Positions 6,631 through 24,000 are shown, counted from the stretch's first letter. The stretch: 24,000 nt of DNA from Oscillospiraceae bacterium (GCA_017435565.1 JAFSEU010000004.1:10323-34322); one strand, 5' to 3'. Numbers and translations are program-made. The notes: a model not told the origin generated them from the sequence alone.

Positions 6631-6723
6631 AAAACGTGTCCATTTGGACACGAATTGACGAATATTATAAAATGTACGTTTGTGATTTGTGCAAAGCGTT
6701 CAAAACGTGTCCAAATGGACACG
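6631..6723 (+). repeat. 93-bp direct repeat, copy A, with two GTGTCCA-N2-TGGACAC palindromes
   Basis: It aligns without gaps to 7288-7380, with 18 mismatches in 93 by hand count; the last 23 nt are identical. The palindromes are CGTGTCCATTTGGACACG near 6635-6652 and CGTGTCCAAATGGACACG near 6705-6722. Confidence 0.85.
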
Positions 6724-6736
6724 TTTATTAAAATAC

Positions 6737-7003
6737 TCAGTTATAGACTTCACGTCTGTGCCCCACAGATAACGCTAAAATAACCAATTTTTCATCTTCA
6801 ATACAACAAATCAGCCGATAATCTCCGATACGGTATCTCCACTGTCCGCTTCTGTTGGCGGTTAAACCTTTGCCGTGCTGCCTCGGATTTTCGCAATCAA
6901 TCAAATTCTTTTGAATCCACGCTTTAATCATCTTTTGCGTGTATTTATCAAGCTTTTTAAACTCTCTGTCAAATACAGCTGTGGTTTCGACCCTGTATGT
7001 CAT
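6737..7003 (-). CDS. type II toxin, RelE/ParE superfamily
   Basis: 88 aa with the characteristic C-terminal pattern WRYRIGDYRLICCIEDEKLVILALSVGHRREVY. It overlaps the upstream antitoxin gene by 4 nt. Confidence 0.88.
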   Translation of the reverse strand: MTYRVETTAVFDREFKKLDKYTQKMIKAWIQKNLIDCENPRQHGKGLTANRSGQWRYRIGDYRLICCIEDEKLVILALSVGHRREVYN

Positions 7004-7221
7004 AAATCAAGTTCCTTCCAAAGCTGCTCGATAGGTACGCTCTTTTTACCGCTTTTCAGATATTCGTTATAGGCTTCATCTGCAACTGTTATATCATATT
7101 CGTCCTCGATTTTTTCAAACAAAGCCCTCTTAAACGCTTCTCCAAGCGACATAGAATGAAGTTTAGCGTAGCTCTCAGCCAATTTTTTTTCCTGTTCAGT
7201 CAGTCTGATAGAAAATGCCAT
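7000..7221 (-). CDS. type II antitoxin, ribbon-helix-helix (RelB/ParD-like)
   Basis: 73 aa. The N-terminal SIRLTEQEKKLAESYAKLHSMSLGEAFKRALFEKI fits an RHH fold and the C-terminus is acidic. ATGA overlap with the toxin gene. Confidence 0.8.
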   Translation of the reverse strand: MAFSIRLTEQEKKLAESYAKLHSMSLGEAFKRALFEKIEDEYDITVADEAYNEYLKSGKKSVPIEQLWKELDL

Positions 7222-7287: not shown

Positions 7288-7380
7288 AAAACGTGTCCAA
7301 ATGGATACAAATTGATGAATGCTACAAAATCGGCACATCAGATTTGTGCAAGGTGTTCAAAACGTGTCCAAATGGACACG
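7288..7380 (+). repeat. 93-bp direct repeat, copy B
   Basis: See copy A. The first palindrome is degenerate (CGTGTCCAAATGGATACA). The second is intact (CGTGTCCAAATGGACACG, ending at 7380). Confidence 0.85.
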
Positions 7381-7559
7381 CAAAGGAATCATCTATCCAT
7401 GTTTTATTCTAATCCTTTTGCCACAATCTTCTGTTAACTAGATTCGTGATATTATGTATTTTGATATCATCTCTTTTATCAATTTACTTTAATATATGAT
7501 CAATACCAATTCTTTCATTGAACGCAATGTAAACGCTAAAAAGCATAATGCTGCGCTTG

Positions 7560-8117
7560 TCAATTTTTACTCATATTTGCAAAAAATCTATCATAATCTT
7601 TCTGAATGATTTTTGTAGTGTTTTCCTTAAATTTAGCTATTTTAGCTTTTGCTCTTGCACCGTCATCTTCAAAATCCCCGCTTTTATCAATTGATAAATA
7701 ATCATCCGTATTTGCAGCAAATTTGTGACATTCCATAGTAAGCTCAGAACGGCACTTGCTGTATCGAAGCCACGTTTCTTTATATGCAGCTAATATTTTT
7801 ATACCATTGAAGATACTGACAAAAGCTGCGCATACAGCTGCTGCAATATTTATCCAAAGCGCAATATCAGATGGTACCGCAGCAGCTATAACATTCAAAA
7901 GACTGATTACAGCAGTGAAAATTATAAGCATACATTCTGAAATACGCCACCAGAATTTATTATAGTCCGAGTATTCAGATAAGTCATTTATATTCTGGTA
8001 AATGTTTTCTATGTATTCTTTATCCGCTGTAATATTGGCTTTCTCTAATGTTTCGTCCCACTTTTTTTGGCAATATCCTTTATAGCCCTCATTTGACTTC
8101 CATTTTTTCTTAATCAT
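7560..8117 (-). CDS. rdrD: SLATT-like 2TM protein (DUF4231-like), last gene of the RADAR-type operon
   Basis: 185 aa. A cytoplasmic N-terminal region is followed by two adjacent TM helices (WWRISECMLIIFTAVISLLNVIAAAV; IALWINIAAAVCAAFVSIFNGIKILAAY). Next comes the conserved post-TM helix KETWLRYSKCRSELTMECHKF. AGGAGAAAG RBS. It starts 30 nt after the upstream gene. Confidence 0.7.
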   Translation of the reverse strand: MIKKKWKSNEGYKGYCQKKWDETLEKANITADKEYIENIYQNINDLSEYSDYNKFWWRISECMLIIFTAVISLLNVIAAAVPSDIALWINIAAAVCAAFVSIFNGIKILAAYKETWLRYSKCRSELTMECHKFAANTDDYLSIDKSGDFEDDGARAKAKIAKFKENTTKIIQKDYDRFFANMSKN

Positions 8118-8147
8118 TTAATCTTTCTCCTACTTGTATAATTTATG

Positions 8148-8927
8148 TTAATTCGACTGAACTCTGATAATATCTTCAAAATTCTTCCATTGATATGTCA
8201 CACCGGTTTTGCCGATAGTAGTGTGTTCAAGATATTTTATCTGTGTTTCACCATCCCACATATTAAAATCAGCTATATAATAACTATCCTTCGTTTCGTA
8301 TATAATTGCATATCTATCATCAATAAACCTATATCTCGACTCATTCTTGGTCAAATTATAGCTCATATGCCAAACAAAGACACATAAGGCCGCCGTAACA
8401 ATTGGCGCAATTACTGCGACCCCTTTAATCAACTTACAGTTATTAATCGTTTCATTTTCGTATAACTTAATAGAATTGTAAATAGCAAGATTCGGATAGA
8501 GAATAGTAATATGAAACATTATTGTAAAAAGAACGAAGTTAAACATAAATGAATGTTCATTATACCTGTTATTTCCATTTAAAAGCAAAAATAAAAGAAC
8601 AGAGGACACAAAATACAACAATGTTATCACCAATATTTTTTTGATCAATCTTAGTTTAGATAATATTATCGGTAAGGGAATAAATATTATTGCTAAAACA
8701 AATATAGAAAACAGAATTGACATTAGAACATCAGCAATTAAATTATCATCAAAAATAGATATTGCTGAATTATCAATTCCAAGGCAATTCAGTTTTGCCC
8801 TTTCAAATATATACCCTATGAATTTCAAAAATGCAGCGCAACTTCCGATAAGTAAAGTTGCCGTCAAGCTTATTGCTTCCTTATTGTTTTTTATATAAGT
8901 CATCATCTTATTAAAAAGCTCACTCAT
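8148..8927 (-). CDS. multi-pass membrane protein (about 5 TM) with a ~70-aa soluble C-terminal domain, function unknown
   Basis: Very hydrophobic segments (LTATLLIGSCAAFLKFIGYIF, LMSILFSIFVLAIIFIPLPIIL, ILVITLLYFVSSVLLFLLL, FNFVLFTIMFHITILYP, VAVIAPIVTAALCVFVW). The ATG at 8927 has an AGGAAG RBS 7 nt upstream. The ORF-track start at 8966 is a GTG with no RBS. Confidence 0.65.
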   Translation of the reverse strand: MSELFNKMMTYIKNNKEAISLTATLLIGSCAAFLKFIGYIFERAKLNCLGIDNSAISIFDDNLIADVLMSILFSIFVLAIIFIPLPIILSKLRLIKKILVITLLYFVSSVLLFLLLNGNNRYNEHSFMFNFVLFTIMFHITILYPNLAIYNSIKLYENETINNCKLIKGVAVIAPIVTAALCVFVWHMSYNLTKNESRYRFIDDRYAIIYETKDSYYIADFNMWDGETQIKYLEHTTIGKTGVTYQWKNFEDIIRVQSN

Positions 8928-9024
8928 ATTTACACTTCCTATATTAAAAATATTTCGATAATACACAGAATTTTACTCTATGTATTATCACAAAAATTTC
9001 ATTTATGCTAAACGACTATTATTA

Positions 9025-11616
9025 TCAATATGCAAAAGATTGCTCATTTCCCATTTTGCGAATTTCATCAAGCCATTTCATAATTTCGAATCGCGAATAC
9101 ATATAGTTACCCTTACTGTCTTTTTTGTTTTCCAAATAAAACAGCAGATATGCATACTCGTTACTTATGCAAGTGGAAAACACACTTTTATCATCAGTAT
9201 TAATCGATACATTAAGCTGCACTTTGCTTGGATCTTTTTTAAGTGCATTATCATAAAAATCAGTAATCGGGTGCTCGCTGTAATCATTGATTGCACTTAT
9301 AAAAACGTTGGAGGAAGGATTTGTTTCAATTCCAATGCTTTCAAGTGAAATATTGCGCTTCATATCATCCTGTATCAGAGAAAGCCCTTCCAAGAAATAA
9401 TCAGGCAGTTTTTCAACGGCGCATTTCTCACCTTTTTCTCTCACTATTTCGCTATAATGATACAAATGATAAAGATAACATGCCTCAAAGCTCTTCCGTG
9501 CTTCTTTCATACGTTCTTTGGTATTACATATTCTATACTCTTGTTTACCGCTGCACCATTCTGAAATAAAACCTTTTTTATAAAGTAATGGATCATCTCC
9601 TCTAAGTAAATATGATAAGTAATAGTGTTGCATATCAAACTTGCATTTATTAAATTCCAAAAACTCTCCTTTCCAAAAACAGTTATATTTCATAGTCTCT
9701 TCCAAAATTTTCTGTACAAATGAAGAATGTATATCATCAGAATATATTATTTGGAAATACCAGTCAAATTTCTCTTGCAAGTAAGAACGGAGACGCGCAT
9801 ATCCGTCAAATTCAATGTTGTGCTCTTGAAAATAATAATACATCCATACTATATTATCCAAAAAAACTTGAATCGGGATTGACAATGGATTCCGTATTTC
9901 ACTATAGTATTTCTCAGGTGGTATTCCGAGTAATGTTGCGTGTCCCAAACGGGAACCCGAGCGTAGATCTAAAAATGTTATCGCTTCGTCAATAGCACGC
10001 AGACCGTCAGCAAGGTCATAGTTATCTTCCCCAACATGATAAGTAGCTTTCAATTGCTGTAAAAGAGATTTATCAATCTGTCGTTTTTCTGCGTCATAAT
10101 ATTGCAGAAAACGAAACATTGGTGCAAACACCTCAGGACGACAGTCCATTTCTTCGCCAGATGCATCTATACCATAAATCCTTTTCGCGGTGTCATAGTG
10201 CAAATCAAAAATGATGTGTGCTTTTTGCTCAATTTCCTGGCGCAAATTATGATGACGACAGAACCCTTCTTGAAATTCTTCAGATTTCTTCACAAAGTGA
10301 AGTGTATAGAAGAAATTTCTGTCTGATTCGAGTGTTCCTTTATGATTTGTTCTACTCAAAGCATCCTCAATTGCGTCGTCATAAACCCGGATAGCCTCTA
10401 TCATTTCGCTACGGCTTTTCTGAGGAGAAATTCTCAGTTCCATTCTATAGATTTTATTGCATTCAATCACGCTGGATATAGTATCCGCGGCAACCGTGCG
10501 TTCATCAGCCCAAGGAATAATACCATCTTTGCGTGCCTGATATTGATTAAAATTATAAAACCCTCTGCGTGAATTGGTCTGAACAAACTCACTATAAAAC
10601 CGATGCTTGAGTATGAGATATAAAAATAACATCTGTTTTATTAATTCATAATCACCTTTACGACAAGCAATTTTCATGAGACAATTATAAAGGATATAAC
10701 GCTCGCCGGAAACAGAAAAATACTTTTGATTCACGTATTGCGCATATCGATGTGCATAATCTATTGTTCCAAGTGAATTCAGCGCATCACACTTTTCTTG
10801 TATTCTCTTTATAGGAAAGGTACAGATAGATTCAGATTCATAAGGAAGAACAGTATTGACAATCAACTTATATAACTCTTTCTTTTCATTCTCCATTTCT
10901 GTAACACTTAGGTATAAAAACAAACGGATAGCTGCAGCTTTTCGCCAAATCAGCTTGAGAGGATACTCCGAACCCTTACATAAAAAATTGTTCAACACAT
11001 CAGACTGAATCTGTTCAATCCACTTTTCATACCAGGCACTTGAAATATTATTCATAAGATATACCCACGAGATATCGAAATACGAAGACGAACCACGCAG
11101 ATGAAAGTGATTATCAGAAATACCGATATCTCTTTGCAGCATCCGATTCAGTTCGTGGTTGTCATGCTCAATACAATAACTCCAATCCATTTGAATTCGC
11201 ATCGAATTCCCTCTGCGAATGTCGTCCTGAACAATTGCAGAGGTAACAAATATTTCCTCACCGATTTCCTTAACTACAGTTCTCCAGATATCTGTATATA
11301 TGTACTTAAAACGATAACGGTTATCACTGCGTACAATCATTTCTCTGGAAAAGTTAAACAGAACATCAAAAAAATCAACCTTTTCCCCTTTCCGCTCATC
11401 ATTGTCATAAAGGCGATCCAAAAGAGCGGTTATATGATTCTGTAACTCCTGAAAATGATATTCCGGAAATACATCAATTAGCATTTTTGTCAGTTCGTTT
11501 CTGCTGAATTCACTGACATTATAGGTGTTAGCTTTCTTCCACAATTCTTTTGTTGTGGTGTTATAATATACTGCACGAAAGAATCGGGCGGAAAATAGAT
11601 TATTGTGACGGGTCAT
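9025..11616 (-). CDS. rdrB: large divergent adenosine-deaminase-fold protein (RdrB-like)
   Basis: All four amidohydrolase/ADA signature motifs occur in the canonical order. These are NHFHLRGS (HxH, nt 11101-11109), YHVGED (HxGE, about nt 10027-10038), RLGHATLLG (GH, about nt 9940-9945) and SINTDDKSVF (TDD, nt 9190-9198). The ATG at 11616 has AAGGAGAG 6 nt upstream. An alternative ATG at 11649 overlaps the rdrA stop (ATGA) but lacks an RBS. Confidence 0.78.
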   Translation of the reverse strand: MTRHNNLFSARFFRAVYYNTTTKELWKKANTYNVSEFSRNELTKMLIDVFPEYHFQELQNHITALLDRLYDNDERKGEKVDFFDVLFNFSREMIVRSDNRYRFKYIYTDIWRTVVKEIGEEIFVTSAIVQDDIRRGNSMRIQMDWSYCIEHDNHELNRMLQRDIGISDNHFHLRGSSSYFDISWVYLMNNISSAWYEKWIEQIQSDVLNNFLCKGSEYPLKLIWRKAAAIRLFLYLSVTEMENEKKELYKLIVNTVLPYESESICTFPIKRIQEKCDALNSLGTIDYAHRYAQYVNQKYFSVSGERYILYNCLMKIACRKGDYELIKQMLFLYLILKHRFYSEFVQTNSRRGFYNFNQYQARKDGIIPWADERTVAADTISSVIECNKIYRMELRISPQKSRSEMIEAIRVYDDAIEDALSRTNHKGTLESDRNFFYTLHFVKKSEEFQEGFCRHHNLRQEIEQKAHIIFDLHYDTAKRIYGIDASGEEMDCRPEVFAPMFRFLQYYDAEKRQIDKSLLQQLKATYHVGEDNYDLADGLRAIDEAITFLDLRSGSRLGHATLLGIPPEKYYSEIRNPLSIPIQVFLDNIVWMYYYFQEHNIEFDGYARLRSYLQEKFDWYFQIIYSDDIHSSFVQKILEETMKYNCFWKGEFLEFNKCKFDMQHYYLSYLLRGDDPLLYKKGFISEWCSGKQEYRICNTKERMKEARKSFEACYLYHLYHYSEIVREKGEKCAVEKLPDYFLEGLSLIQDDMKRNISLESIGIETNPSSNVFISAINDYSEHPITDFYDNALKKDPSKVQLNVSINTDDKSVFSTCISNEYAYLLFYLENKKDSKGNYMYSRFEIMKWLDEIRKMGNEQSFAY

Positions 11617-11645
11617 TTTACTCTCCTTCTTTTTTTCGTATAGTA

Positions 11646-14261
11646 TCATTTAGATTGTCGAATTAATAGCTTATTTATAGTTTTTTGGGGATTTTTAATT
11701 CCGCAACCATTAGAAAAGATTTCGTCGTATTCTTTGTATCTTGAACTATCAATATTTTCTTTTAGGTCACCGCAATACTTTTGTACTATAATATGATTTC
11801 TAAACATTTCTGAAAATCTACAACTATCTTCAGTAAGGTGGTAAACATCATCATTTTCTTTCAATTTCTTGTAGATTATTTCATATAATTTTTGAATTGT
11901 TTCCAATGGTGTTCTTTGGTTAGCTTTTGTATCTCTCAAATTCATTTCGCTACTATATAGAATATAGTAAACCGCTCTTTTGATAACATTATATGCCAAA
12001 TCCGTATGCTTAAGGAAAAACCAAAGGATATTACTTTGTTGTAATGATGTCTGTAATTCTTTCATCAACCCTGTTACTACAGAATTGATATCATCAACAT
12101 TTGCATCAATGTTGGAATGACGTAAAATGGCAGTCAATAGCTCTGATATCGAATAAACTGTATTTCCAGCGTCATCACATTTGCTTCGGTATATATATGA
12201 TAATTCATTTATAAATTTCATATTTGTAAGACGTTCTTCAGCACACAATGAATTTATAATAAACGAAGTGGGATCAATATGATTTTCTATATGATATTCT
12301 GTTGTTATGTAGTTCTGGTTCACAATATATGGTTCTCTCGTCGAACGTGATGACATAAGCAATAATAATAATAAATCATATACAAAAAACCGAAACTTAA
12401 TATTTTCTGTATTTAAAATTAATGTGCCATTTGCATCTTCATCACAAAAATCACAGAATGCTTCAGGATAAATCAATGTATCGAGAGAGCCTTCAAATAG
12501 ATCTTTGCACCAAGTTCCTAACAATGTATATCCGAATATATCTCGTAGGTTACGATAATTATCTTTTTTTAGAAAATAGTCTTCAGTTGAACTACTATTT
12601 TTCCATTTTTCATCTTCTACACACTGAGGTAATGAGAAAGAAAAAGATGCCAGAATAAATCGGATTAACTTTTGATCCATTAGACCGATTCTTGAAGCAC
12701 TGTATAGGATTCTGAAAAGCTCTCCAAAACTATAATTATCAATCACATATCGATTTTTCTCTTCATTAAAGAAATTTTCACCATAAATACTAACTATACG
12801 TTTTTGTTCGTCTTCTGAGGTCAAACAATTATAGTAATATTCCCATATTCTTTTTCCACGACGATCGATAGGTTCAGCAAGAAATTCTCTAATTAATTTC
12901 TCTTCTCTTTGAGAAAAATCATACTCAGGAAACAATTTAAAATATAGGTAATCCAACAAAATTTTCACATTTGCTTTCCGACTAAGTAGAAGCGTTATAT
13001 CAGTGCTTTCTGAACGTTTTAAGGATGCAATATCCTTCATCTGGTAAATCATATAAAAGATGTCATATAGATTTCTGAGGCTATCGGGTTCCATAAAGTG
13101 AAATTTATTTCCTTTAGCATCTAAATAAACCTGCGTCCTATCAGCAAGTATTATTAAAACCAATTCCTTTGGACTTACGGCATAATCCGCATCCATTCCG
13201 TTTTCTTCTAATTTCTTAAATAATATACTATGCTTTAATGCAGGAAAATTCTTTCTGTATTCATCAAGCTTTGCTGATGTTCCTAAGTTTATACGTACAG
13301 GTGTTAAAGCACGATAGTCATACTTTCTCCATGACGGCATAGTGATTCTCATATCAGATGGAATAATCTTTCTGAGGAAATCATGTGTATGTTCAAATGC
13401 AAGGTGAAGGTTTTGTTTGTTTTTTTCTTCAGTAGTACTCAAACGCAAAAAAGTTTCTTTCTGCAACGATGCTGTCAACACCGGAAGATTAAGTGTAACC
13501 ATCACGATCATATGTGGAATCATAAGATATTGGTGTATACACTGCATAATACGCATATGATTCTGCCTAGACATATCAATATCATCGATACAAATAATCA
13601 GATGCATATCATTAGTGCTACTGTTTGGCTCAAATAATTCTTTATGAAAATTAGTGTATTTTAGCACTAAATTTGTGAACTCTTCCCTAATACTATATCT
13701 ATCTGAAAGCTTTTCCATAGAATTATATGAAGAAGTGAGATTATCATTGCACTTAAGACTCACATAATGTCCGTAAATATTGCATATATCTTCTTTGATC
13801 ATTCTCGCATTATCATAGCGTTCCTTTTTGTACGGAAAATCTTCACGTTTCGATTTCTCATCAATCTTTTTGAACATGCTTGAAAGAATAATAAGAAAAA
13901 TATCTTCGGTTTCATCAAGGATAGCCGCATTGATATATGGCAACTGGATAAAACAATTTGATATTTTAACTTCATCGGTATGCTTAACATCCGATAATGA
14001 ATCTGCAACCGATAACATTGCCGATGTTTTACCGGTTCCTCGTCTACCCATAAAAGCTATTACATTATGTATTTCATCTTGGTGAGTTATGCGCTTACTG
14101 GTTGCACATATTGTCTCGACCAATCTAAAAGCTTGCGTATAAGTCTTATTTAGGAATCCATCATCATTCATAGCATCAATCATTCTTCTTTGAATTCCAC
14201 GATTTAGCAAGCTCTCAAAAGGTATTCTGAGTTCATTCTGCATTTTTATCCGTCCTTTCAT
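11646..14261 (-). CDS. rdrA: large P-loop ATPase (RdrA-like)
   Basis: 871 aa. Walker A MGRRGTGKTS (nt 14022-14048). Walker B LIICIDDIDM (nt 13572-13601). A long helical C-terminal region has no other motif I recognise. An alternative start at 14243 (MQNEL...) has a weak AAGGA RBS. Confidence 0.75.
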   Translation of the reverse strand: MKGRIKMQNELRIPFESLLNRGIQRRMIDAMNDDGFLNKTYTQAFRLVETICATSKRITHQDEIHNVIAFMGRRGTGKTSAMLSVADSLSDVKHTDEVKISNCFIQLPYINAAILDETEDIFLIILSSMFKKIDEKSKREDFPYKKERYDNARMIKEDICNIYGHYVSLKCNDNLTSSYNSMEKLSDRYSIREEFTNLVLKYTNFHKELFEPNSSTNDMHLIICIDDIDMSRQNHMRIMQCIHQYLMIPHMIVMVTLNLPVLTASLQKETFLRLSTTEEKNKQNLHLAFEHTHDFLRKIIPSDMRITMPSWRKYDYRALTPVRINLGTSAKLDEYRKNFPALKHSILFKKLEENGMDADYAVSPKELVLIILADRTQVYLDAKGNKFHFMEPDSLRNLYDIFYMIYQMKDIASLKRSESTDITLLLSRKANVKILLDYLYFKLFPEYDFSQREEKLIREFLAEPIDRRGKRIWEYYYNCLTSEDEQKRIVSIYGENFFNEEKNRYVIDNYSFGELFRILYSASRIGLMDQKLIRFILASFSFSLPQCVEDEKWKNSSSTEDYFLKKDNYRNLRDIFGYTLLGTWCKDLFEGSLDTLIYPEAFCDFCDEDANGTLILNTENIKFRFFVYDLLLLLLMSSRSTREPYIVNQNYITTEYHIENHIDPTSFIINSLCAEERLTNMKFINELSYIYRSKCDDAGNTVYSISELLTAILRHSNIDANVDDINSVVTGLMKELQTSLQQSNILWFFLKHTDLAYNVIKRAVYYILYSSEMNLRDTKANQRTPLETIQKLYEIIYKKLKENDDVYHLTEDSCRFSEMFRNHIIVQKYCGDLKENIDSSRYKEYDEIFSNGCGIKNPQKTINKLLIRQSK

Positions 14262-14747: not shown

Positions 14748-15989
14748 TCAGTGGCTCGGCACAACCCCCACAGCCAATGCCGCATATTTGTCAATATCAA
14801 TATGCTTCTCATCTGGCTCAGTAAATCCACCCGGCGTATATCCAACAGCCAATTCTTCAAATTTTTCAAGATTGTAGCTGTGTTCTCTTTCAATGACCTT
14901 GCGGTTCGGCGCAATACCGATTGCAAGTGCGGCAAGCTCATTGATGTCATAGCTATGCTCTCTTTTGGCGGCCTTGCTCGCTGAAACGGTATAGTTCATC
15001 AAGCAGGTAAGCGCATAGTTCTTTAGATTGCAGATGTTATCCCGTTTCAGAACGTTCTCGCAGATATCGGCAATATCGGACACACTCAGAGCTGCAATTT
15101 TCTCGATGATTTCTGTTTTCGGGCACAGCTCGCCGCCAACCCACATATTTTTTCTTTTTGTGCTGACTGCCTCTTTGAGCGCCGTTATGATTTTTTTATG
15201 GCGTGATTTATAATTCTCCAAAGACAATTTTTGTGATATTTGGTCTCTCAAATCCTCAGAAGAGATATAAATATAATTATCTAACTTAGAATTATTTAAT
15301 TTAGTGGTAAAAATCACACTTTGGTCTTGACAATTTTCACACGTCGGAATTTCCTTTTTTACATCACGCCTTGGCAAAAAAGAATCCGCATTTTCGGTCT
15401 TTTTCGCCTTGATTTTGGAAAGCTTGTCCGAAATTATGCGAAGTGTCATTTTTGCCATTTTTCCTGTAAGGCTCAAAATATTGCCCTTAGCGCTTCGGCG
15501 CACCTCGATGAGCCGTTCACGCTCAAGCGCAGAGAGCAGCTCACACGCCTTTTTGTTTCCGCAGGAAAGTGCCGATTGAATTTCCGTATTCTTAAATGCG
15601 CAGAACGTTTTGAGCGAGCTTAAAATTCTCGATGCAATAAAGGCATACAGAACGGCGCAATCGTTCCCTAAACTTAGCGCACCTTGCAGAATCATCACAA
15701 ACTGTCCGTCAATTTTCTTTATGTAATAGCGATTTCTGCCGCAGGATGTTATGAATCCGTAATTAGTAAGATTTTTGAGTGCCGAAAGGGCTGTCTTGCG
15801 TGAGCAGCTGAGCATTGTTGCCGCCGAATCGGGTGAGCAGAACACATACGGCTTGCCTTCTGCGTCCGTATATCCGTTGGCAAGAGAAAGCGAACGACGG
15901 GAGTGCAGCAGCATAAAGAGGATTTTCGCACGGCTGCAGAGTAATTTGTTTTCCAAGATTTCCTTGTGCATTATTAAAAATTTTGTCAT
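14748..15989 (-). CDS. RepA_N-type replication initiator-like protein (winged-helix N-terminus)
   Basis: The N-terminal pattern is typical of Firmicute RepA_N proteins on plasmids and ICEs: ...LLCSRAKILFMLLHSRRSLSLANGYTDAEGKPYVFCSPDSAATMLSCSRKTALSALKNLTNYGFI. A second similar wHTH-like module follows. The C-terminus carries three tandem ~25-aa repeats. Confidence 0.7.
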   Translation of the reverse strand: MTKFLIMHKEILENKLLCSRAKILFMLLHSRRSLSLANGYTDAEGKPYVFCSPDSAATMLSCSRKTALSALKNLTNYGFITSCGRNRYYIKKIDGQFVMILQGALSLGNDCAVLYAFIASRILSSLKTFCAFKNTEIQSALSCGNKKACELLSALERERLIEVRRSAKGNILSLTGKMAKMTLRIISDKLSKIKAKKTENADSFLPRRDVKKEIPTCENCQDQSVIFTTKLNNSKLDNYIYISSEDLRDQISQKLSLENYKSRHKKIITALKEAVSTKRKNMWVGGELCPKTEIIEKIAALSVSDIADICENVLKRDNICNLKNYALTCLMNYTVSASKAAKREHSYDINELAALAIGIAPNRKVIEREHSYNLEKFEELAVGYTPGGFTEPDEKHIDIDKYAALAVGVVPSH

Positions 15990-16085
15990 TGAAATACATT
16001 CCTTTCAGATATGGCGCAAAAACGCAGAAAAATTGCATTGAAATATGCAACTAAAAACGTTCACATTTTACGAACAAATAAAAAA

Positions 16086-16112
16086 AGGCGCAGAAGTTAA
16101 ATTTCTGCGCCT
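16086..16112 (-). terminator. intrinsic terminator after the RHH gene (bidirectional shape)
   Basis: Perfect 10-bp stem AGGCGCAGAA/TTCTGCGCCT. On plus it is flanked by AAATAAAAAAA upstream, which gives the T-run on the minus strand, and by TCGTTATTTCTTTTT downstream. Confidence 0.8.
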
Positions 16113-16166
16113 TCGTTATTTCTTTTTGTGCCGATTGGTCTTGTGTAAGGGGGGGAACTGTGCCGG

Positions 16167-16568
16167 TTAATCTATCAGCTCTGAGAGTCTGAAGGCTCTG
16201 TTATTCATCTTGATAAAATCAACTGCTTTGCGGCGGAAGATTTCAACCTGCGCAGGTGATATCTCAAGCTGCTCGGCCAATATCTGCGATACAATCTCAA
16301 GCTCGATAGCAGTCGATGACAGCACCTGATTTGTCTTTGTGTTTATGCGCTGCTCGACAAGGGCAAGGCGGCTGTCGAGGAGCTTCACAATGTCCTCGTT
16401 GATAAAACTCGCCTTGTCGCTCATATAGCGGTAGTCACGGTAGAATTTTAAGGCTGATGTTACGATGGACGTAACACTCGCACCTTCATCCTTTGCAATT
16501 TTTGCAATGTCAATCATCAAATCCTCGTCAATTCTCAAGGTAGTTTTTACTGTGTTTTCTGTAGACAT
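16167..16568 (-). CDS. ribbon-helix-helix (CopG/MetJ-like) DNA-binding protein; possible relaxosome accessory factor or regulator
   Basis: 133 aa. The N-terminal TLRIDEDLMIDIAKIAKDEGASVTSIVTSALKFY fits a beta-alpha-alpha RHH fold, followed by a coiled-coil-like C-terminus. Strong GAAGGAGAGG RBS. Confidence 0.6.
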   Translation of the reverse strand: MSTENTVKTTLRIDEDLMIDIAKIAKDEGASVTSIVTSALKFYRDYRYMSDKASFINEDIVKLLDSRLALVEQRINTKTNQVLSSTAIELEIVSQILAEQLEISPAQVEIFRRKAVDFIKMNNRAFRLSELID

Positions 16569-16622
16569 AAAAATGACCTCTCCTTCTCAAAAAATTCGTT
16601 TTGTCAAGGTTTGCAGGATAAA

Positions 16623-16881
16623 GGAATATGGCAAAAGTGCCATATTCCGTCACAGCAGTCAGCAAAGCTGACTGCACTTTTTTCTTTTGTTCTCGGATAA
16701 AAACTGAATTTTACAGTTATAAAAATTTGTATGGCATTTTGTATGGCAAATTCTTTTTCAGAAAATGCGATTTGCCATACAAAAACGTGAAAAGCTCCGA
16801 TTTTGCTTTATTTGTGTGTATGGCTCGAATATGGCACAAAGTAAAACAAACGGCTAAAGTTAGCCATTTGTCTGTATGGCA
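16623..16881. repeat. intergenic array of TATGGCA iterons and inverted repeats (candidate oriT, iteron or operator region)
   Basis: There are six direct copies of TATGGC(A/T), at 16627, 16730, 16742, 16819, 16830 and 16875, and two inverted copies, at 16638 and 16773. A perfect 11-bp IR GGAATATGGCA-N4-TGCCATATTCC spans 16623-16648. A perfect 9-bp IR GCAGTCAGC-N3-GCTGACTGC spans 16655-16675 and is followed by a T-run. A perfect 13-bp IR TTGTATGGCAAAT-N18-ATTTGCCATACAA spans 16739-16782. Confidence 0.7.
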
Positions 16882-18696
16882 TTAATCAAACATACCTTTA
16901 GTGAGTCTGCCCTTGGTTTTGCCCTTGATTTTTGCACTTGAAAGGTAGTTTATCCGCCCGATTTTTACCGTTTTTGTGTCATCAAACGGTGGCAGATTTT
17001 TAACCGAATCGCTCAACATCGGCGCTTTGATTTTGCAAGGGAAGGAGCCCGCTTTTGTCACAATCCAGGTGCCGATTGGAATACGTGTCAGCTCGTCGGG
17101 CGACATTAAAGGCTTGCCAATCATCGACTTTGTAACGCTGCGCTTGCCGCTTGATTTGCTCTCTGAAGCGGAGAGTACCGTGCGGTTTCCAAGCAGCTTT
17201 GAAAGCGTGTTTGCAGTCGTTTCCGAGCTTGGCGAAACTCTTGAAAACATCATCATCTGGACTGCGTCCCTGATGATTTCCGATATCTCTCTGCCGTAGA
17301 TTTTTGATAGCTGAGAGAGCGACTGCAGGGATAATATGAAGCGTATTCCACGGGAACGTGCGGCGGTGATGAGAACGTCAACGTCCTTAATCGGCGGCGT
17401 GTTGCCGAACTCGTCCCATACGCACAAAACGTTCCTATCAAGCCTTGATGAAGCATTACTTTCTGCCTGTGCTATCAGTTCGTTCATTAAGCTTCGGATA
17501 AACAGCGACGCAAAGAAATGTCTTGTCGTGTTATCGTCGGGACAGATGATATATATTGCCGTCGGATTCTTGATGAAATCCTCGCTGTCAAATTCAATGC
17601 TGTGCGTGCATATCATCTGCTCAAGTTCAGCATCAATAAAATCTACAAGATGAGCAAGAGCGCTTGAGAATACGTTCATTGATGTTCTGCTGTCGGCACT
17701 TGTCGCAGGACCGACGTAGTTGATTATTCTGTCATCATCAATAAATTTTAAAAGACCTTCGAGCCTTGATTTCTGCACAGTTGCAGTCGAGCCTTCCTCA
17801 AGACCGTTAAGCTCAACAATGAGCCTGAAAACCGATATAATATGCCTCTCGTCACTTTCTCCGTAAATGCTCACCAGCAGAATCATTCCCGTGACCAACC
17901 CCTTTGAGGTATCGTCAAAAAAGCTCTCGGACGATGATTTGTGCGTGTTTATGTTTGATATAATCGAGTTTGCGAGAATTTTAGCGTGTTTTTCTGCCAA
18001 AGCGTAAGAAATAATGCGTTCCTCGTCCGTTTCGGCAGTCTTGTAGCGGTCGATTGCATTATTGACGTTTATCATCAGATTGTAGCAGTAGGATTTCAGC
18101 GGATTTCTGAAATCAAGATACGGCGTTTTGTAGCCTAAATTTCGCAAAGCTCCGCCCGTTGTTTTCAGGCATTCGCCCTTGTTATCAAGAACAATCATTG
18201 AAGCGCCGCCAAAATTAGCCGGCTGAGCATTTCGGTGACACTTGGCATTGTAGATAATATTTGCGTTGATAATACATTTTGTCTTGCCCGTTCCCGGAGG
18301 AGCAACAAGAATCACGCTGTCCTCGGTTGTATCGACTATCCAGATATGCTTTTGTTTTGCAAGCACAATTCCGCTTTTTTGCTCTCTGCCCGGTGCAACA
18401 TAGGTATAGACCTTGCGGCACTCTGCGTCGGTTGCAAACCTTGCGCTGCCGTGCTGATTGTCGCCGACCGTTCGTGATTTTGTCTCATTCAGCGTATCGG
18501 TATCCCACAGATACACGATAAATCCTACGCAGATTGACAAAAACAGCTTCATAGCAACATTTTGGGTAAGCGCAAAAAGAAAAAGGCGGATATCAAATCC
18601 GCCTTTAAAGCTGTTTGCACTTGTCAGAAATGTCATTGCTATGTAGGTTATCAGCGCCGATATTGCGGCAAGCACTGTTTTTTCACTATTTTTCAT
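16882..18696 (-). CDS. type IV secretion coupling protein (VirD4/TraG/TraD family)
   Basis: N-terminal TM helices. Walker A VAPPGTGKTK (nt 18277-18303). Walker B-like VLCVWDEFGNTPPI. Size is about 600 aa. The ATG at 18696 has a GAAAGGGTG RBS; the ORF-track start at 18708 is a GTG. Confidence 0.85.
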   Translation of the reverse strand: MKNSEKTVLAAISALITYIAMTFLTSANSFKGGFDIRLFLFALTQNVAMKLFLSICVGFIVYLWDTDTLNETKSRTVGDNQHGSARFATDAECRKVYTYVAPGREQKSGIVLAKQKHIWIVDTTEDSVILVAPPGTGKTKCIINANIIYNAKCHRNAQPANFGGASMIVLDNKGECLKTTGGALRNLGYKTPYLDFRNPLKSYCYNLMINVNNAIDRYKTAETDEERIISYALAEKHAKILANSIISNINTHKSSSESFFDDTSKGLVTGMILLVSIYGESDERHIISVFRLIVELNGLEEGSTATVQKSRLEGLLKFIDDDRIINYVGPATSADSRTSMNVFSSALAHLVDFIDAELEQMICTHSIEFDSEDFIKNPTAIYIICPDDNTTRHFFASLFIRSLMNELIAQAESNASSRLDRNVLCVWDEFGNTPPIKDVDVLITAARSRGIRFILSLQSLSQLSKIYGREISEIIRDAVQMMMFSRVSPSSETTANTLSKLLGNRTVLSASESKSSGKRSVTKSMIGKPLMSPDELTRIPIGTWIVTKAGSFPCKIKAPMLSDSVKNLPPFDDTKTVKIGRINYLSSAKIKGKTKGRLTKGMFD

Positions 18697-18741
18697 GGCT
18701 GAGTGCACCCTTTCTCATTTTAAATTTGGCACCACCGCCTT

Positions 18742-21700
18742 TCACACCATCAAAAAATTTGCCGCTTCAGGTATGCTGTCGATATTCTGTGCATTGTCCT
18801 GTACGTTTTGTTGCGTTTGCTGCTGCTTTTGTAATTCAAAAGATATACCCATTTCCTCGGCGGTATCATCAAACTGCTTTTCAACGAAAGAATATGCCTT
18901 GTGCACTCGCTCGAAGGACTCGCTTAAATTGTGGTCTTGCGGGATTTTTCGATAGCTTTGCGCCAAGTGGTGCTTGTTGGTTTCGCTCAGGTTATCCAAA
19001 CCAAACTTAGAGGCAAGCTGTGCAGACAGGCAGTCAGCCTCAAACTCGCAAACACTAACACTTTGAGTGGTGGTTTTATGCATAAGAGCGTGTGCAAGCT
19101 CGTGCGACATTGTGTGCGCCAGTTCTGTGTCATTCAGCTTGTCACTCAGCACGATTTTGTCCTCTTTAGGTGAATAATATCCGTGCAGGGATATGGAATT
19201 TACATCTTCAACCGAAACTGTTATGCCGTTGTTTTCTGCAATTTGCCGCAAAACCTTGTAGATATCATTGTGTTGTTTCGATTCAAAGCCTTTTTCAAAA
19301 AATTTCGGATATTCACTCGGAGGACAGTTCGTCTGCGAAATATCGAAAACATTGAATGCTTCAAATCGCTTTTTCACCCAGGTTTCGATTTCTCCATTGG
19401 CAATGGCGGCTTTTTCAAGGCTCGAAGCCTGAGATACCTTTTTGACGTTGCCGTTTTCGTCCTTAAAATACTCGCAAAATGCAGGCTGCAGCAATTGAAT
19501 CGCACCCTTTTTGATTACCTTATGCCCCATATCCGCCCATTGCTTATAGGTTTTCACAAAGGTCGCGTGTGGATTCTGAGCGTAGATTCTGAGCTGATTT
19601 TGTGCAGAATACTTCGTAAATTTTGCACGATACGCCATATATTCGGCAATCGTCGAAGGGTCGAGCTTGAAGCTTTCGCCGATATCGACAACGCTTCTGT
19701 CCACAATGTCTGATTTAATCGCACTTTGCTTGATATCGATTGCTTTTGCTTTGGTATTGAGCGCATTGTGCTTTTCAATAAAGCTTTGAACATCAACTGC
19801 GCTAAGCCTTGCCGATGATAGCTTGTAGTCACCGTCAGCGGAAATTTTAATCAGCTTGTCTGTCTTGACGCACAGCGGAGCTTCAAGTTTATTTTTTTCA
19901 TTACACGAAATCGAAACGTGAGTTTTTGCATCAAAATCACCCGATGAAACAGCAAAGCAGGAAAGTGAATCCTTTCCTGCTTCGATAACGACGTATTGGT
20001 TTGTGATAGAGTTTTCATTTTTGATTTGCAGGATATCTCCCGTAAAGTATTTTTGGGACATAGATTGTTCAGTCCTTTCAATTGTATTTTCGCTATTATA
20101 TTGTATTGCTATCGGATCTTGCAACTTCATATCGAAGTTTTCGGCAACATCTGTGTTTGATATAACATTATCGTTATCTTCGGATATTTCTTCTTCAATT
20201 TCCAACAGCTCACTAAGTTCTTTAAGTCTTGCACTTTTCTCTGCAAGTTCTTCAGATTGCGCAAATGGTTGATTTAACTGTTCCTTTGCTTCCTGGAGCT
20301 GAATGTGCAGAGAATCGAGTGATGCTATTGCGTCTGTATAGTGTTTTCCTATCATTCCTAAAGCATTGTTTATTCTGCGTATGTTTCCTTGTGCGTCAGA
20401 GCCGAGCGTTATCTGATAAGTTCTCTCTCGGTGCAGGTCAAGATAATGCTCATTTGCAAAAATATCATATGAAACATACATATCAAAGCCTTTATATGTT
20501 CCGACTGATAGTTTCGTACCGCCTTTGCACATACTACAGCAAGCTATCAATTCCTCCCCGCATTCTGCTTTATCGGTAAAGGTTTTGCCGTTAACAACCA
20601 TCTCAAAATCATCATTATCGGCAAAGGTGCGTATATGCTCTATGTCAGAGCGAAGTCCTTCTATTTTGATTTCTGCGCTGCGGATTCTTTCGGGCAAATG
20701 CTTCATCACTTGATTTTCAAGGTTGTACATTTCGTTTCTGTGGTTAGCTTCAAGTGTTTTAAGCTTTGCAACCGAAATTTCCAGTTCCATTTTTTCCTTG
20801 ATGAGAGGATTGCCTGCGCACAAGGCCTTTACTTCGGCATACGACAGCGTAGCTTCGTCTACATCCTCACACGAACGCACAGGCGATTTGCTTGACATTA
20901 TCTGCGATATAAAACGCTGCTTGTTTTCGATGGTTTGATACAGATATGCATCAAAGGTAGCTTCGGTAACATACCTGTATATCTCAACAACATCGTTTTC
21001 ATTGCCTTGACGGATAATACGTCCGTGACGCTGTTCCAAATCAGAAGGGCGCCACGGACAATCAACATCGTGAAGTGCGATAAGCTTGGTCTGAACATTG
21101 GTTCCTGCACCCATTTTGGCGGTTGACCCCATAAGTATTCTTACTTGTCCGCTGCGCACTTTGGAAAACAGATCCTTTTTCTTTGCTTCGCTATCTGCGT
21201 TATGGATATATTCAATTTCAGCTTTCGGTACACCTTTTGCAATCAGCTTGCTTCGGATATCATCATAAACATTAAAAGCTCCGTCGCTTTTCGGAGTGGA
21301 AAAGTCGCAGAAAATAAGTTGTGTAGATTTGTTCTCTGCGGAATTCTGCCATATATTGAATACATTATCAACGCACATATTGACTTTCGTTCCGCTTTCA
21401 TCGGGCAGCAGAGGATTTATCATTCGCTGGTCAAGACCGATTTTGCGTCCGTCGTTTGTAACCTTGAGCATATTATCTTCTTCGGGCGCAACAAGCTTGT
21501 CGTGTATGCGCTTTGCCCTTTCGGAAAGAGCCTTTACCATTTGCTTTTGATTTTCTGTGGGTTTTACGACGATATTATGATATTTTGCTTCAGGCACAGG
21601 AAGATTGAGCATATCAGATGTTTTTATATCAGCCGTTTCCCGAAATACATTCATTAGTTCGGGCAGATTTGAAAACTTTGCAAATCTTGTCTTTTGGCGA

Positions 21701-24000
21701 TATCCCGTACCTTCAGGCGCAAGCTCGCTTGATGTTACAGTTTCACCGAACATTGAAGCCCACGCATCGAAGTTCTGCCAATGCATTTCTTTAAGCCGTG
21801 CACTCTGCAGATAACGCTGCATGGTGTAAAGCTCAGTCATTGAATTTGATACAGGCGTGCCTGTTGCGAATATAACACCTTTTCCGCCTGTCAGCTCATC
21901 CATATACTGACACTTCAAGTACAAATCCGAAGATTTTTGTGCTTCTGTTTGCTGTACACCTGCAACATTATGCATTTTTGTATATATAAAAAGATTTTTG
22001 AATGAGTGTGCCTCATCAACGAAAAGTCTGTCAATGCCGAGTTCCTCAAAGGTTACAACATCATCACGCTGCGGACTTTCCAATAATTTCGTTAACCGTG
22101 CCTCAAGATTGCGCTTTGTCTTTTCAAGCTGCTTTACGCTGAAGGTATTTCCGTTCTTTCGTCCAAGTTCACTTATACCATCAGCGATTTCCGATATCTG
22201 CCTTCTTATCATTCGTTCCTGCCGTTCTCTCGACACCGGTATTTTTTCAAGCTGTGAATGACCGATTATAACTGCATCATAATCGCCGGTAGATATCTTT
22301 GCGCAAAGACGTCGGCGGTTCTTTGTACTAAAATCATCTTTGGTTGCAACGAGAATGTTTGCTGAAGGATATAACGTCAAAAACTCGCTGCCCATCTGCT
22401 CCGTCAAGTGATTGGGCACAACAAAGAGTGATTTTGTACATAATCCAAGTCTTTTGCTTTCCATAGCGGCTGCTACCATCTCAAAGGTCTTACCTGCACC
22501 GACCTCATGGGCGAGCAGAGTATTTCCGCCGTAGATTATTCTTGCAATTGCGTTAAGCTGATGTTCTCTCAGCTTTATTTCGGGATTTATACCGACAAAA
22601 TTCAAATGACTGCCGTCATACTCTCTCGGACGTGTGCTGTTGAACAGGATGTTATATTTGCTTACAAGAGAATCACGACGGTTAAAATCGTTATATACCC
22701 ATTCCTTGAAGGTCTGCTTTATTAAGTCCTGCTTTGCCTGCGCAAGCTCCGTTTCCTTTTTGTTTATTACAGAGATAGTTTTACCGCCTTCAACCGTAAC
22801 TCTGTCATAAACCTTCGTATCACGCAAATTCAGCGTATCTTCGATAATTTCATAAGCGTTCTTTCTCGATGTACCGTAAGTCGTATTGGCAATAACATTG
22901 TAGTTATCGGAATTCTTACCGTCAATATGCCATTCTGATGTGTATTCGGAATATTTGACACCGAGCTGATATGTTCTTGCGTATGATGACGGTTTGATTG
23001 TTTCTATGATAAAGTCTTTTACAACATCCGTGCCTATCCACGTTGCGCCTAAGCGTATATCTATGTCGCTTGCTTCAAGCGGCTTTGGCATTACTGCTGT
23101 CAATGCATTTACGTTCTGCTCATATAACGAAGATGTTTTCGCATACTCTTGTGCTATGTGCAGCTTTTCACGAATATTCCCGGAAAGGTATTCGTCTGCA
23201 GTAAGGTATTTATCAGCGCCGTTTGTATCATCGCCCATAGGATTCAGATAAATAACGCTTTTCAACTCAGCGAATATGGCTTCTTCACTCTTGCCGGTGA
23301 GCTGCTGCATATATTGCATATCAACTCTTGCTTTTTCGCTTAATGATATTGCCAATGCTTCACTTGCCGTATCGACGTGCGTTATTTCTACAATCGGCTT
23401 TATGGTGCGTTTGTAGAACATATCGGCTTTGCTTGCAAGCTCGCCGTTTTCGTCAAGATTTTCAAGCGAGGTAAGTAAATGGTATGAGCTGTCCTCTCCA
23501 AATGCTTTGGCGTTGTTGCGTGAATTTATCAAGCCGTATTTTTCCGTAAAGCTGTCATAAATCCTGTTCAGCTGTTCCTGAAGTCTGCTGATTTCATTAT
23601 CACCGTATTCATTAACTTGGTAATCTATCAGAGTTCTTACGCAGTCACGAATTTCAATCATACCCTTAATGCGCTCTGATACCGTTGCAGAAAACTCCTT
23701 ACGAATCATTACGCTGTTTTCACGGTAATAGATATCATCGTTAACAACGGTATAAGAGTAGTTACACACGTCAGCTTGTGCCGGTATTTTCTCTGCAATT
23801 TCTTCAACATTTTCAAGTTTTTCTGATTTTGTAATCTCACCCTGCAAATGACTTATTGCTGATTTAAGCTGTTCTTTCAGTGAAGCACGCTCTATAGCAA
23901 CACAAGCCGTTTCATCAGGATTGCCATACAGAGAATACTCTACTCCCTGCTTCATTTCGCCCAATATCATTTCCGGATGCAACTCGAAGTACTTATTGAC
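18742..24000 (-). CDS. giant multidomain protein: SNF2-family helicase fused to a C-terminal ArdC-like ssDNA-binding domain and HExxH metallopeptidase motif; N-terminus outside the window
   Basis: The frame is open to position 24000 (the ORF-track start is an internal TTG). SNF2 motif I AHEVGAGKTF (nt 22483-22512). DEAH box VDEAHSF (nt 22006-22017). Helicase-C motifs GSTAKMGAGTNVQ and QRHGRIIRQGN. The ArdC-N-like block is YSAQNQLRIYAQNPHATFVKTYKQWADMGHKVIKKGAIQLLQP. HELAH lies at nt 19090-19104. Confidence 0.85.
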   Translation of the reverse strand, partial: VNKYFELHPEMILGEMKQGVEYSLYGNPDETACVAIERASLKEQLKSAISHLQGEITKSEKLENVEEIAEKIPAQADVCNYSYTVVNDDIYYRENSVMIRKEFSATVSERIKGMIEIRDCVRTLIDYQVNEYGDNEISRLQEQLNRIYDSFTEKYGLINSRNNAKAFGEDSSYHLLTSLENLDENGELASKADMFYKRTIKPIVEITHVDTASEALAISLSEKARVDMQYMQQLTGKSEEAIFAELKSVIYLNPMGDDTNGADKYLTADEYLSGNIREKLHIAQEYAKTSSLYEQNVNALTAVMPKPLEASDIDIRLGATWIGTDVVKDFIIETIKPSSYARTYQLGVKYSEYTSEWHIDGKNSDNYNVIANTTYGTSRKNAYEIIEDTLNLRDTKVYDRVTVEGGKTISVINKKETELAQAKQDLIKQTFKEWVYNDFNRRDSLVSKYNILFNSTRPREYDGSHLNFVGINPEIKLREHQLNAIARIIYGGNTLLAHEVGAGKTFEMVAAAMESKRLGLCTKSLFVVPNHLTEQMGSEFLTLYPSANILVATKDDFSTKNRRRLCAKISTGDYDAVIIGHSQLEKIPVSRERQERMIRRQISEIADGISELGRKNGNTFSVKQLEKTKRNLEARLTKLLESPQRDDVVTFEELGIDRLFVDEAHSFKNLFIYTKMHNVAGVQQTEAQKSSDLYLKCQYMDELTGGKGVIFATGTPVSNSMTELYTMQRYLQSARLKEMHWQNFDAWASMFGETVTSSELAPEGTGYRQKTRFAKFSNLPELMNVFRETADIKTSDMLNLPVPEAKYHNIVVKPTENQKQMVKALSERAKRIHDKLVAPEEDNMLKVTNDGRKIGLDQRMINPLLPDESGTKVNMCVDNVFNIWQNSAENKSTQLIFCDFSTPKSDGAFNVYDDIRSKLIAKGVPKAEIEYIHNADSEAKKKDLFSKVRSGQVRILMGSTAKMGAGTNVQTKLIALHDVDCPWRPSDLEQRHGRIIRQGNENDVVEIYRYVTEATFDAYLYQTIENKQRFISQIMSSKSPVRSCEDVDEATLSYAEVKALCAGNPLIKEKMELEISVAKLKTLEANHRNEMYNLENQVMKHLPERIRSAEIKIEGLRSDIEHIRTFADNDDFEMVVNGKTFTDKAECGEELIACCSMCKGGTKLSVGTYKGFDMYVSYDIFANEHYLDLHRERTYQITLGSDAQGNIRRINNALGMIGKHYTDAIASLDSLHIQLQEAKEQLNQPFAQSEELAEKSARLKELSELLEIEEEISEDNDNVISNTDVAENFDMKLQDPIAIQYNSENTIERTEQSMSQKYFTGDILQIKNENSITNQYVVIEAGKDSLSCFAVSSGDFDAKTHVSISCNEKNKLEAPLCVKTDKLIKISADGDYKLSSARLSAVDVQSFIEKHNALNTKAKAIDIKQSAIKSDIVDRSVVDIGESFKLDPSTIAEYMAYRAKFTKYSAQNQLRIYAQNPHATFVKTYKQWADMGHKVIKKGAIQLLQPAFCEYFKDENGNVKKVSQASSLEKAAIANGEIETWVKKRFEAFNVFDISQTNCPPSEYPKFFEKGFESKQHNDIYKVLRQIAENNGITVSVEDVNSISLHGYYSPKEDKIVLSDKLNDTELAHTMSHELAHALMHKTTTQSVSVCEFEADCLSAQLASKFGLDNLSETNKHHLAQSYRKIPQDHNLSESFERVHKAYSFVEKQFDDTAEEMGISFELQKQQQTQQNVQDNAQNIDSIPEAANFLMV

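Follow-up and report, generated by a model that had tools for sequence, protein, structure and literature searches.

A stretch of 24,000 nucleotides (nt) from an Oscillospiraceae bacterium (GCA_017435565.1 JAFSEU010000004.1:10323-34322), called the window throughout, carries on its minus strand four co-oriented genes in series, an rdrA-like gene, an rdrB-like gene, a gene for a membrane protein with five transmembrane (TM) segments (the 5-TM gene) and a SLATT gene. The interpretation that we favour, with modest confidence, is that of a RADAR-like rdrA-rdrB-SLATT locus with a variable slot that has been filled by a mobile 5-TM gene, probably co-expressed with SLATT and not a dedicated subunit of RADAR. 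Comparison of sequences has established what the genes are, that one cassette has exactly replaced another and that the 5-TM/RADAR pairing is unique among the loci surveyed. New is a variant of a RADAR-like system together with a candidate new family of membrane proteins; the system as such belongs to a known kind. The rdrA-rdrB-SLATT block appears to be carried as cargo by a conjugative element of the Oscillospiraceae genome.

As judged from profile matches, the upstream pair of genes is RADAR-like but divergent and of a Clostridia type. RdrB aligns with the NCBIfam RdrB model from protein position 39 to 870 and model position 16 to 845 of 850 (E=2.3e-49), with a score of 168.7 bits that lies below the equivalog cut-off of 800, and is matched in addition by PADLOC RdrB (8.5e-30), Pfam A_deaminase (4e-10) and the solved RdrB structures PDB 8fnv and 8fnw (E=9e-23). 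The deaminase motifs HxH, H527 and NTDD are intact and invariant across 29 relatives. Immediately upstream and co-oriented (end of rdrA at 11646, rdrB at 11616) lies the gene of an AAA+ ATPase with the Walker A motif GRRGTGKTS, which gives a partial match to NCBIfam RdrA (E=4e-15, 55.3 bits versus a cut-off of 600) and no match to the PADLOC RdrA model. As both proteins remain far under the equivalog cut-offs, the pair is considered a distant RADAR subfamily rather than an equivalog. Related loci were surveyed with our own scripts for open reading frames (ORFs), TM segments and hidden Markov models (HMMs), covering the best 80 RdrB loci from each of two collections, genomes and metagenomes, in which RdrB has 475 matches in one and more than 537 in the other; the loci of the two closest relatives were added. 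In the surveyed loci rdrA is located just upstream of rdrB, and an RdrA homologue was found by local search in 74 of the first 84.

The assignment of the 185-amino acid (aa) protein at the end of the series to SLATT/DUF4231, with two TM helices and a W-x-R-Y helix, had been part of the original prediction and is borne out by scores above the cut-offs of Pfam DUF4231 (PF14015; 31.7 bits, gathering cut-off 24.7) and NCBIfam SLATT_1 (NF033634; 58.7 bits, cut-off 41). According to hydropathy, two adjacent TM helices at about 58-80 and 84-110 are followed by YKETWLRYSKCRSE, with the motif YKETWLRY after the second helix. The corresponding YKETWxRH pattern is conserved in the alignment and, together with a C-terminal F..NM motif, common to the window SLATT and the SLATT proteins that trail rdrB in 14 other loci, while DUF4231 is matched individually by 9 of the 15 RADAR-linked SLATT proteins. 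On the DNA level, the window SLATT is 69% identical to the SLATT part of locus L088 and 67% identical to that of L089. No solved structure was matched in PDB searches with the single sequence or with the profile, the PADLOC RTasSLATT and 2TM effector models match weakly (E ~0.01), and the single-sequence AlphaFold2 (AF2) model is poor, with a predicted local distance difference test score (pLDDT) of 59. SLATT trails rdrB in L089 (75% RdrB identity), in L005 (55%) and in many distant loci, and is by this comparison a regular accessory of this RdrB clade.

Membrane accessories were counted in those loci for which 1.5 kb or more of sequence beyond rdrB was available, 129 after removal of redundancy. 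None follows rdrB in 87 of these, one (SLATT, Csx27-like or other) in 37, and two in series in five, namely the window, L009, L163, L019 and L056. In L009 a Zn-ribbon protein with four TM segments (4-TM) precedes SLATT; in L163 (7756-9110) the first of the two accessories is a 2TM effector of the CBASS type (PADLOC PDLC00696, E=2e-53) and the second a match to the Csx27/tm_4 models (E=3e-8). The accessible literature agrees with the original statement that described RADAR loci carry at most one accessory (PMC11482910, PMC11676413). The proposal that two accessories make an unusual variant thus stands with respect to rarity (5/129) but not with respect to uniqueness, as L009 and L163 demonstrate. 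Equally, a module in front of SLATT, which had appeared as an oddity, is in fact the norm of the close clade, defined as RdrB above 550 bits, where a second module precedes SLATT or is fused to it in seven of nine SLATT loci. On the other hand, the HMM of the 5-TM family identified no other RdrB locus among the approximately 160 surveyed.

The most telling comparison is with L088, the RdrB of which is 78% identical. DNA homology extends over window positions 9376..9021, through the rdrB stop codon, and resumes at 8112..7559 from the second SLATT codon onwards; in between, L088 has 882 nt coding for an HxxH hydrolase-like domain and two TM helices, in place of which the window has 908 nt. As the homology breaks at gene boundaries, the 5-TM gene represents an exact cassette replacement. 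The gene itself looks like a foreign cassette, being absent from the other RdrB loci surveyed and having only distant relatives. Judged by such comparisons, the rdrB-SLATT junction is a variable cassette slot in this RdrB clade. The slot is empty in L089 and L005, holds a separate hydrolase-like gene with an HxxH...PD...HxxxD signature in L011, L094, L010 and L098 and the Zn-ribbon 4-TM protein in L009 and L096, while the hydrolase-like module is fused to SLATT in L088, L115 and L010. Since 'PLC-like' would be based on a single sub-threshold Pfam match (Zn_dep_PLPC, E=0.01), and searches against PDB and NCBIfam gave no match, the module is named HxxH hydrolase-like and nothing more.

Two further observations concern the occupants of the slot. 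At the very start of SLATT, the fusion ORF of L088 (8619-10040) has kept a ribosome-binding site (RBS) and an ATG (GGGAGGGAACGCATATG), from which SLATT may be translated separately as well. In L097 (metagenome contig Ga0352976_1046384, 54% RdrB identity) a Ham1-family ITP/dITP pyrophosphatase is encoded directly after rdrB at 1705-2406 (Pfam Ham1p_like, E=1.3e-33), and the start of the next ORF appears SIR2-like by eye. As RdrB has been reported to make (d)ITP, it is striking to find an ITPase in this position; the enzyme could provide self-protection or a reset function.

The 5-TM protein itself had been described as a multi-pass membrane protein with a small soluble C-terminal domain, a description confirmed by hydropathy and AF2. 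In the 259-aa protein, TM segments are located by hydropathy at about 18-41, 64-88, 96-116, 127-148 and 167-188, and the C-terminal 70 aa or so are soluble. The AF2 model built with a 26-sequence alignment (pLDDT 87.3, predicted template modelling score 0.81) shows five long helices up to residue 194 and then six strands at 198-255. Foldseek comparison of the model with PDB and BFVD found nothing of similar fold at E<1e-3. The core of the HIV-1 intasome (integrase) gave the best partial matches, with about 70 aligned columns of unreported range; as the beta tail is also about 70 aa long, these matches are taken to concern the SH3-like C-terminal domain of the integrase, and the beta domain of the model is provisionally taken as SH3-like. 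The balance of K+R minus D+E over 26 family members is positive at the N-terminus, loop 2 and loop 4 and negative at loop 1, loop 3 and the C-terminal domain, which under the positive-inside rule suggests an N-in, C-out topology. Loop 1 and the C-terminal domain, the most conserved soluble parts, would consequently face outward.

A word-indexed search of 5.8 billion proteins returned only the 5-TM query itself, and with a profile the query and P0108. As low-complexity TM words swamp such an index, an exhaustive HMMER (phmmer) search was needed, which recovered 40 cluster representatives matching over their full length (E=6e-22 to 1e-3, 25-31% identity), even the nearest being only 31% identical. 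Conserved in the family are a GAxTW motif at the start of the first TM segment, loop 1 and the C-terminal beta domain with YAIIYET..YYLAEY, and some members are extended at the N-terminus by a beta-rich part of approximately 170 aa. Searches of Pfam, NCBIfam, PADLOC, PHROGs and PDB sequences gave nothing meaningful for the family, and tblastn with the 5-TM protein against plasmid and phage collections gave no match. The 5-TM protein is thus a member of a previously undescribed and uncharacterised family.

Two relationships that would have tied the protein to other accessories were rejected. A Csx27 relationship of the polytopic protein had been put forward for examination, and the PADLOC Csx27/tm_4 models do not match the protein at E<=1; the same models match accessories of other RdrB loci, L022, L111 and L163, at 2e-12 to 3e-8 and thereby serve as a positive control. 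Equally, the 243-aa polytopic occupant of L009 is no relative, with an hhalign probability of 0.6%.

Is the ORF a gene at all? Its GC content of 29.6% and the lack of an annotated family would be compatible with a chance ORF or the remnant of a pseudogene at 8148-8966. However, 259 codons uninterrupted in stop-rich AT DNA, a good RBS, the 40 full-length distant relatives with conserved motifs and the confident AF2 model render this explanation vanishingly improbable and effectively refute it. Because of these relatives, and because the window SLATT aligns with SLATT proteins trailing rdrB elsewhere, both downstream ORFs are, from comparative evidence, real genes and not chance ORFs. Two genes on the same strand after rdrB, with short gaps and their own RBSs, had been predicted, and the coordinates prove right for the minus strand. 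The longest ORF of the 5-TM gene spans 8148..8966 and gives 272 aa from a GTG; the ATG at 8927, with 259 aa, is the likelier start, having an AGGAAG RBS 8 nt upstream and being used by the public gene calls. Between the rdrB stop (9025) and the ATG of the 5-TM gene lie 97 nt, or 58 nt if the GTG is the start, and the 5-TM stop is separated by 30 nt from the start of SLATT, which has an AGGAG RBS; at this short distance the 5-TM and SLATT genes are probably co-expressed.

With whom members of the 5-TM family associate elsewhere was assessed in the genomic contexts of seven other members. In L172 (4206-6457) the member resides inside a type I restriction-modification (R-M) operon between hsdS and hsdR, in translational coupling with two genes, one for DUF2513 and one without an assigned function; in L174 (1055-4176) it follows Shedu SduA and PDC-S31; and in L173 (1242-3713) and L177 (1659-5990) it is found directly upstream of AAA_15/AAA_21 (AriA/GajA/OLD-like) ATPases. 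Furthermore, the member in L176 follows a DUF6119 protein, the one in L175 neighbours a HATPase-type regulator (labelled by eye from the sequence), and the one in L085 a peptide deformylase. Restriction or defence-type genes or candidates thus flank the family in six of the seven contexts, while SLATT, Csx27, RdrA or RdrB were found in none of the seven. As the family otherwise occurs away from RADAR and SLATT, the idea of a dedicated RADAR accessory is weakened.

These contexts also bear on a reading in which the 5-TM gene is unrelated to defence and encodes an envelope protein, for example a cell-wall-associated SH3-like protein, carried along as passenger cargo. The protein has no recognisable defence domain, the predicted outward SH3-like domain is a common wall-binding fold and the neighbour of one family member is the peptide deformylase; however, the predominance of restriction and defence-type neighbours and the sparse and patchy distribution of the family, as is typical for defence genes, make a mere passenger improbable.

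The main alternative sees in the 5-TM protein a true partner of SLATT, which it would gate, anchor or serve as sensor, with the slot as a co-effector position and the membrane output in two parts. The high proportion of close-clade SLATT loci with a module adjoining or fused to SLATT, the hydrolase-SLATT fusions, which provide Rosetta-stone evidence for an interaction of occupant and SLATT, and the exactness of the replacement at gene boundaries all speak for such a partnership, as do the 30-nt spacing and the common composition of the four genes. The fusions, however, involve the hydrolase-like module and not the 5-TM family, the other 5-TM members sampled have no SLATT neighbour, the 5-TM protein does not resemble the other polytopic occupant in L009, and the closest RdrB relatives have an empty slot. 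We regard the partnership as a tentative possibility that falls clearly short of being probable.

The interpretation of a mobile slot occupant that is no dedicated RADAR subunit has to face several points that weigh against it. In the sister loci L088, L115 and L010 the occupant is fused to SLATT, from which it follows that slot occupants, and perhaps also the 5-TM protein, may work with SLATT. No promoter or terminator was called by the consensus scan in the 30-nt gap between the 5-TM and SLATT genes, and the low GC content at third codon positions (GC3) is common to all four genes, which may therefore be mobilised and expressed together. The breadth of the sample is that of the best 80 loci from each of two collections, and the contexts of the 5-TM family amount to eight in all, several on short contigs.

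In a further extension, the rdrB-SLATT junction would be a dedicated slot for swappable co-effectors, in which SLATT pairs with an HxxH hydrolase, a Zn-ribbon 4-TM or a 5-TM protein, and the 5-TM family would have been recruited by RADAR, Shedu, OLD/Gabija-like ATPases and type I R-M systems as a novel membrane sensor or effector. We consider this rather unlikely as a whole; if true, what happens at the cell envelope would be connected, through the outward-facing conserved parts of the 5-TM protein, with the poisoning of nucleotides inside the cell.

Under the favoured interpretation of a RADAR-like locus with a mobile occupant, infection would be sensed by RdrA, which would license RdrB to convert (d)ATP into (d)ITP, as in characterised RADAR (PMC9994260). 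SLATT may add a membrane-permeabilising or ion-channel output by analogy with the pore or channel proposed for RdrD (PMC11482910) and with the output demonstrated for other membrane effectors, and the 5-TM protein would most likely act as a separately mobile defence or sensor module at the membrane level. A coupling of membrane disruption to deamination, at which the original prediction had hinted, is not supported as stated and stays conjectural.

Among known systems, the locus resembles most closely the three-gene RADAR rdrA/rdrB/rdrD of Pluralibacter gergoviae (Gao et al. 2020, as summarised in PMC11482910 and PMC11676413), in which genes for an ATPase, an adenosine deaminase and a small SLATT protein with two TM helices follow each other on the same strand; RdrB is homologous end to end, with the catalytic motifs kept. 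In contrast to that system, RdrA and RdrB of the window reach only 55 of 600 and 169 of 800 bits, a 259-aa polytopic gene is inserted between rdrB and SLATT, and the locus lies on a conjugative element of a gut or rumen host from the class Clostridia. RADAR accessories have been described as a small membrane protein, SLATT or Csx27 (PMC11676413). With the Csx27-associated RADAR (rdrC) and type VI-B Csx27 the window has in common a polytopic protein of a few hundred residues after rdrB, which however lacks a profile match, differs in the number of TM segments and has a C-terminal beta domain. CBASS 2TM effectors, DRT/AbiA-associated SLATT and Hailong HalA, a channel that depolarises the membrane according to a review (PMC13276650), equally place a small membrane protein with a predicted pore or channel output after an enzymatic sensor or producer, but the similarity of the window SLATT to the CBASS 2TM and DRT SLATT effectors is as weak as stated above and lacks a structure match. 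The sister loci L088, L094, L010, L011, L115 and L009/L096 share the rdrA-rdrB-SLATT backbone and a second module in the slot, although their hydrolase-like or Zn-ribbon 4-TM occupants are unrelated to the 5-TM protein. Accessory or effector-replacement roles of SLATT have been discussed (PMC9226505), and a commentary uses the unconfirmed label 'SLATT-associated RADAR (rdrABCD)' (PMC7699616); a description of an accessory arm with SLATT plus another protein, of a 5-TM occupant or of the 5-TM family was not found in the accessible literature.

While RADAR is understood structurally with respect to RdrA and RdrB, what its membrane accessories do is hardly understood at all. The clade described here offers a natural series, with the slot empty or holding the hydrolase-like, the Zn-ribbon 4-TM or the 5-TM module, with which the accessory arm can be probed. 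The 5-TM family, with its confident predicted fold and mostly restriction or defence-type neighbours, is a candidate for a new defence-related membrane protein, and the Ham1-type ITPase in the slot of one relative is of immediate relevance to the model in which RADAR acts through (d)ITP.

Table 1. Features of the four-gene block and of the gap behind rdrB, in window coordinates.
Feature	Coordinates	Strand	Remarks
rdrA-like AAA+ ATPase	11646..14243	-	865 aa, public gene call with ATG; longest ORF to 14261
rdrB-like adenosine deaminase	9025..11616	-	863 aa
5-TM membrane protein with C-terminal beta domain, taken as SH3-like	8148..8927	-	259 aa; hydropathy and AF2
SLATT/DUF4231 two-TM protein	7560..8117	-	185 aa; Pfam and NCBIfam above cut-offs
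Extended -10 promoter-like site	9011..8984	-	consensus scan; overlaps the hairpin
AU-rich hairpin of 15-16 bp followed by a U-rich tract	8990..8956	-	consensus scan and RNA fold

The gap between rdrB and the 5-TM gene contains the promoter-like site and the hairpin listed in Table 1. The RNA fold of 8925-9030 has an energy of -22.8 kcal/mol (z=-3.6 versus shuffles). The promoter and terminator calls are consensus matches, the counts of which are not enriched over shuffles. Site and hairpin might act as an internal promoter or a partial terminator, or mark the seam of a cassette.

The host is an Oscillospiraceae metagenome-assembled genome, and the surrounding conjugative element is represented by TraG/VirD4, RepA_N and a giant methylase-helicase. 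GC3 is 0.26-0.33 in all four genes of the block (7560-14261) compared to 0.48-0.51 in the RepA_N/TraG genes of the element (14748-23982), and due to this low GC3 the block resembles imported cargo.

Other relatives show further arrangements. In L093 (8244-9640) and L092, with about 50% RdrB identity, an MBL-fold-looking gene of 297 aa and a small protein with an N-terminus that is Csx27-like by eye (MEKLSSYNILNNLFPG...) are encoded about 590 nt downstream of rdrB and not adjacent to it; the small protein of L092 gives a weak hint of SLATT_4 (E=0.009). On plasmid pAT1 of Aureibacter tunicatorum (NZ_AP025306.1 199132-205458; L179), a Bacteroidota megaplasmid, an rdrA/rdrB-like pair, both genes annotated as hypothetical, is followed by a gene annotated as 'SLATT domain-containing protein', and the three-gene set has not been recognised by the annotation.

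Adjoining the four-gene block, a DUF6290/ParE toxin-antitoxin pair is located at 6737-7221, and below approximately 6400 chromosomal genes (Gate, MurD-like, DAHP synthase) are found, with the edge of the element between these and the pair. The toxin-antitoxin pair is flanked by three copies of the 16-bp palindrome GTGTCCA(A/T)(A/T)TGGACAC at 6636-6651, 6707-6722 and 7364-7379, which are probably operator sites; one of the three was also scored as a terminator-like hairpin.

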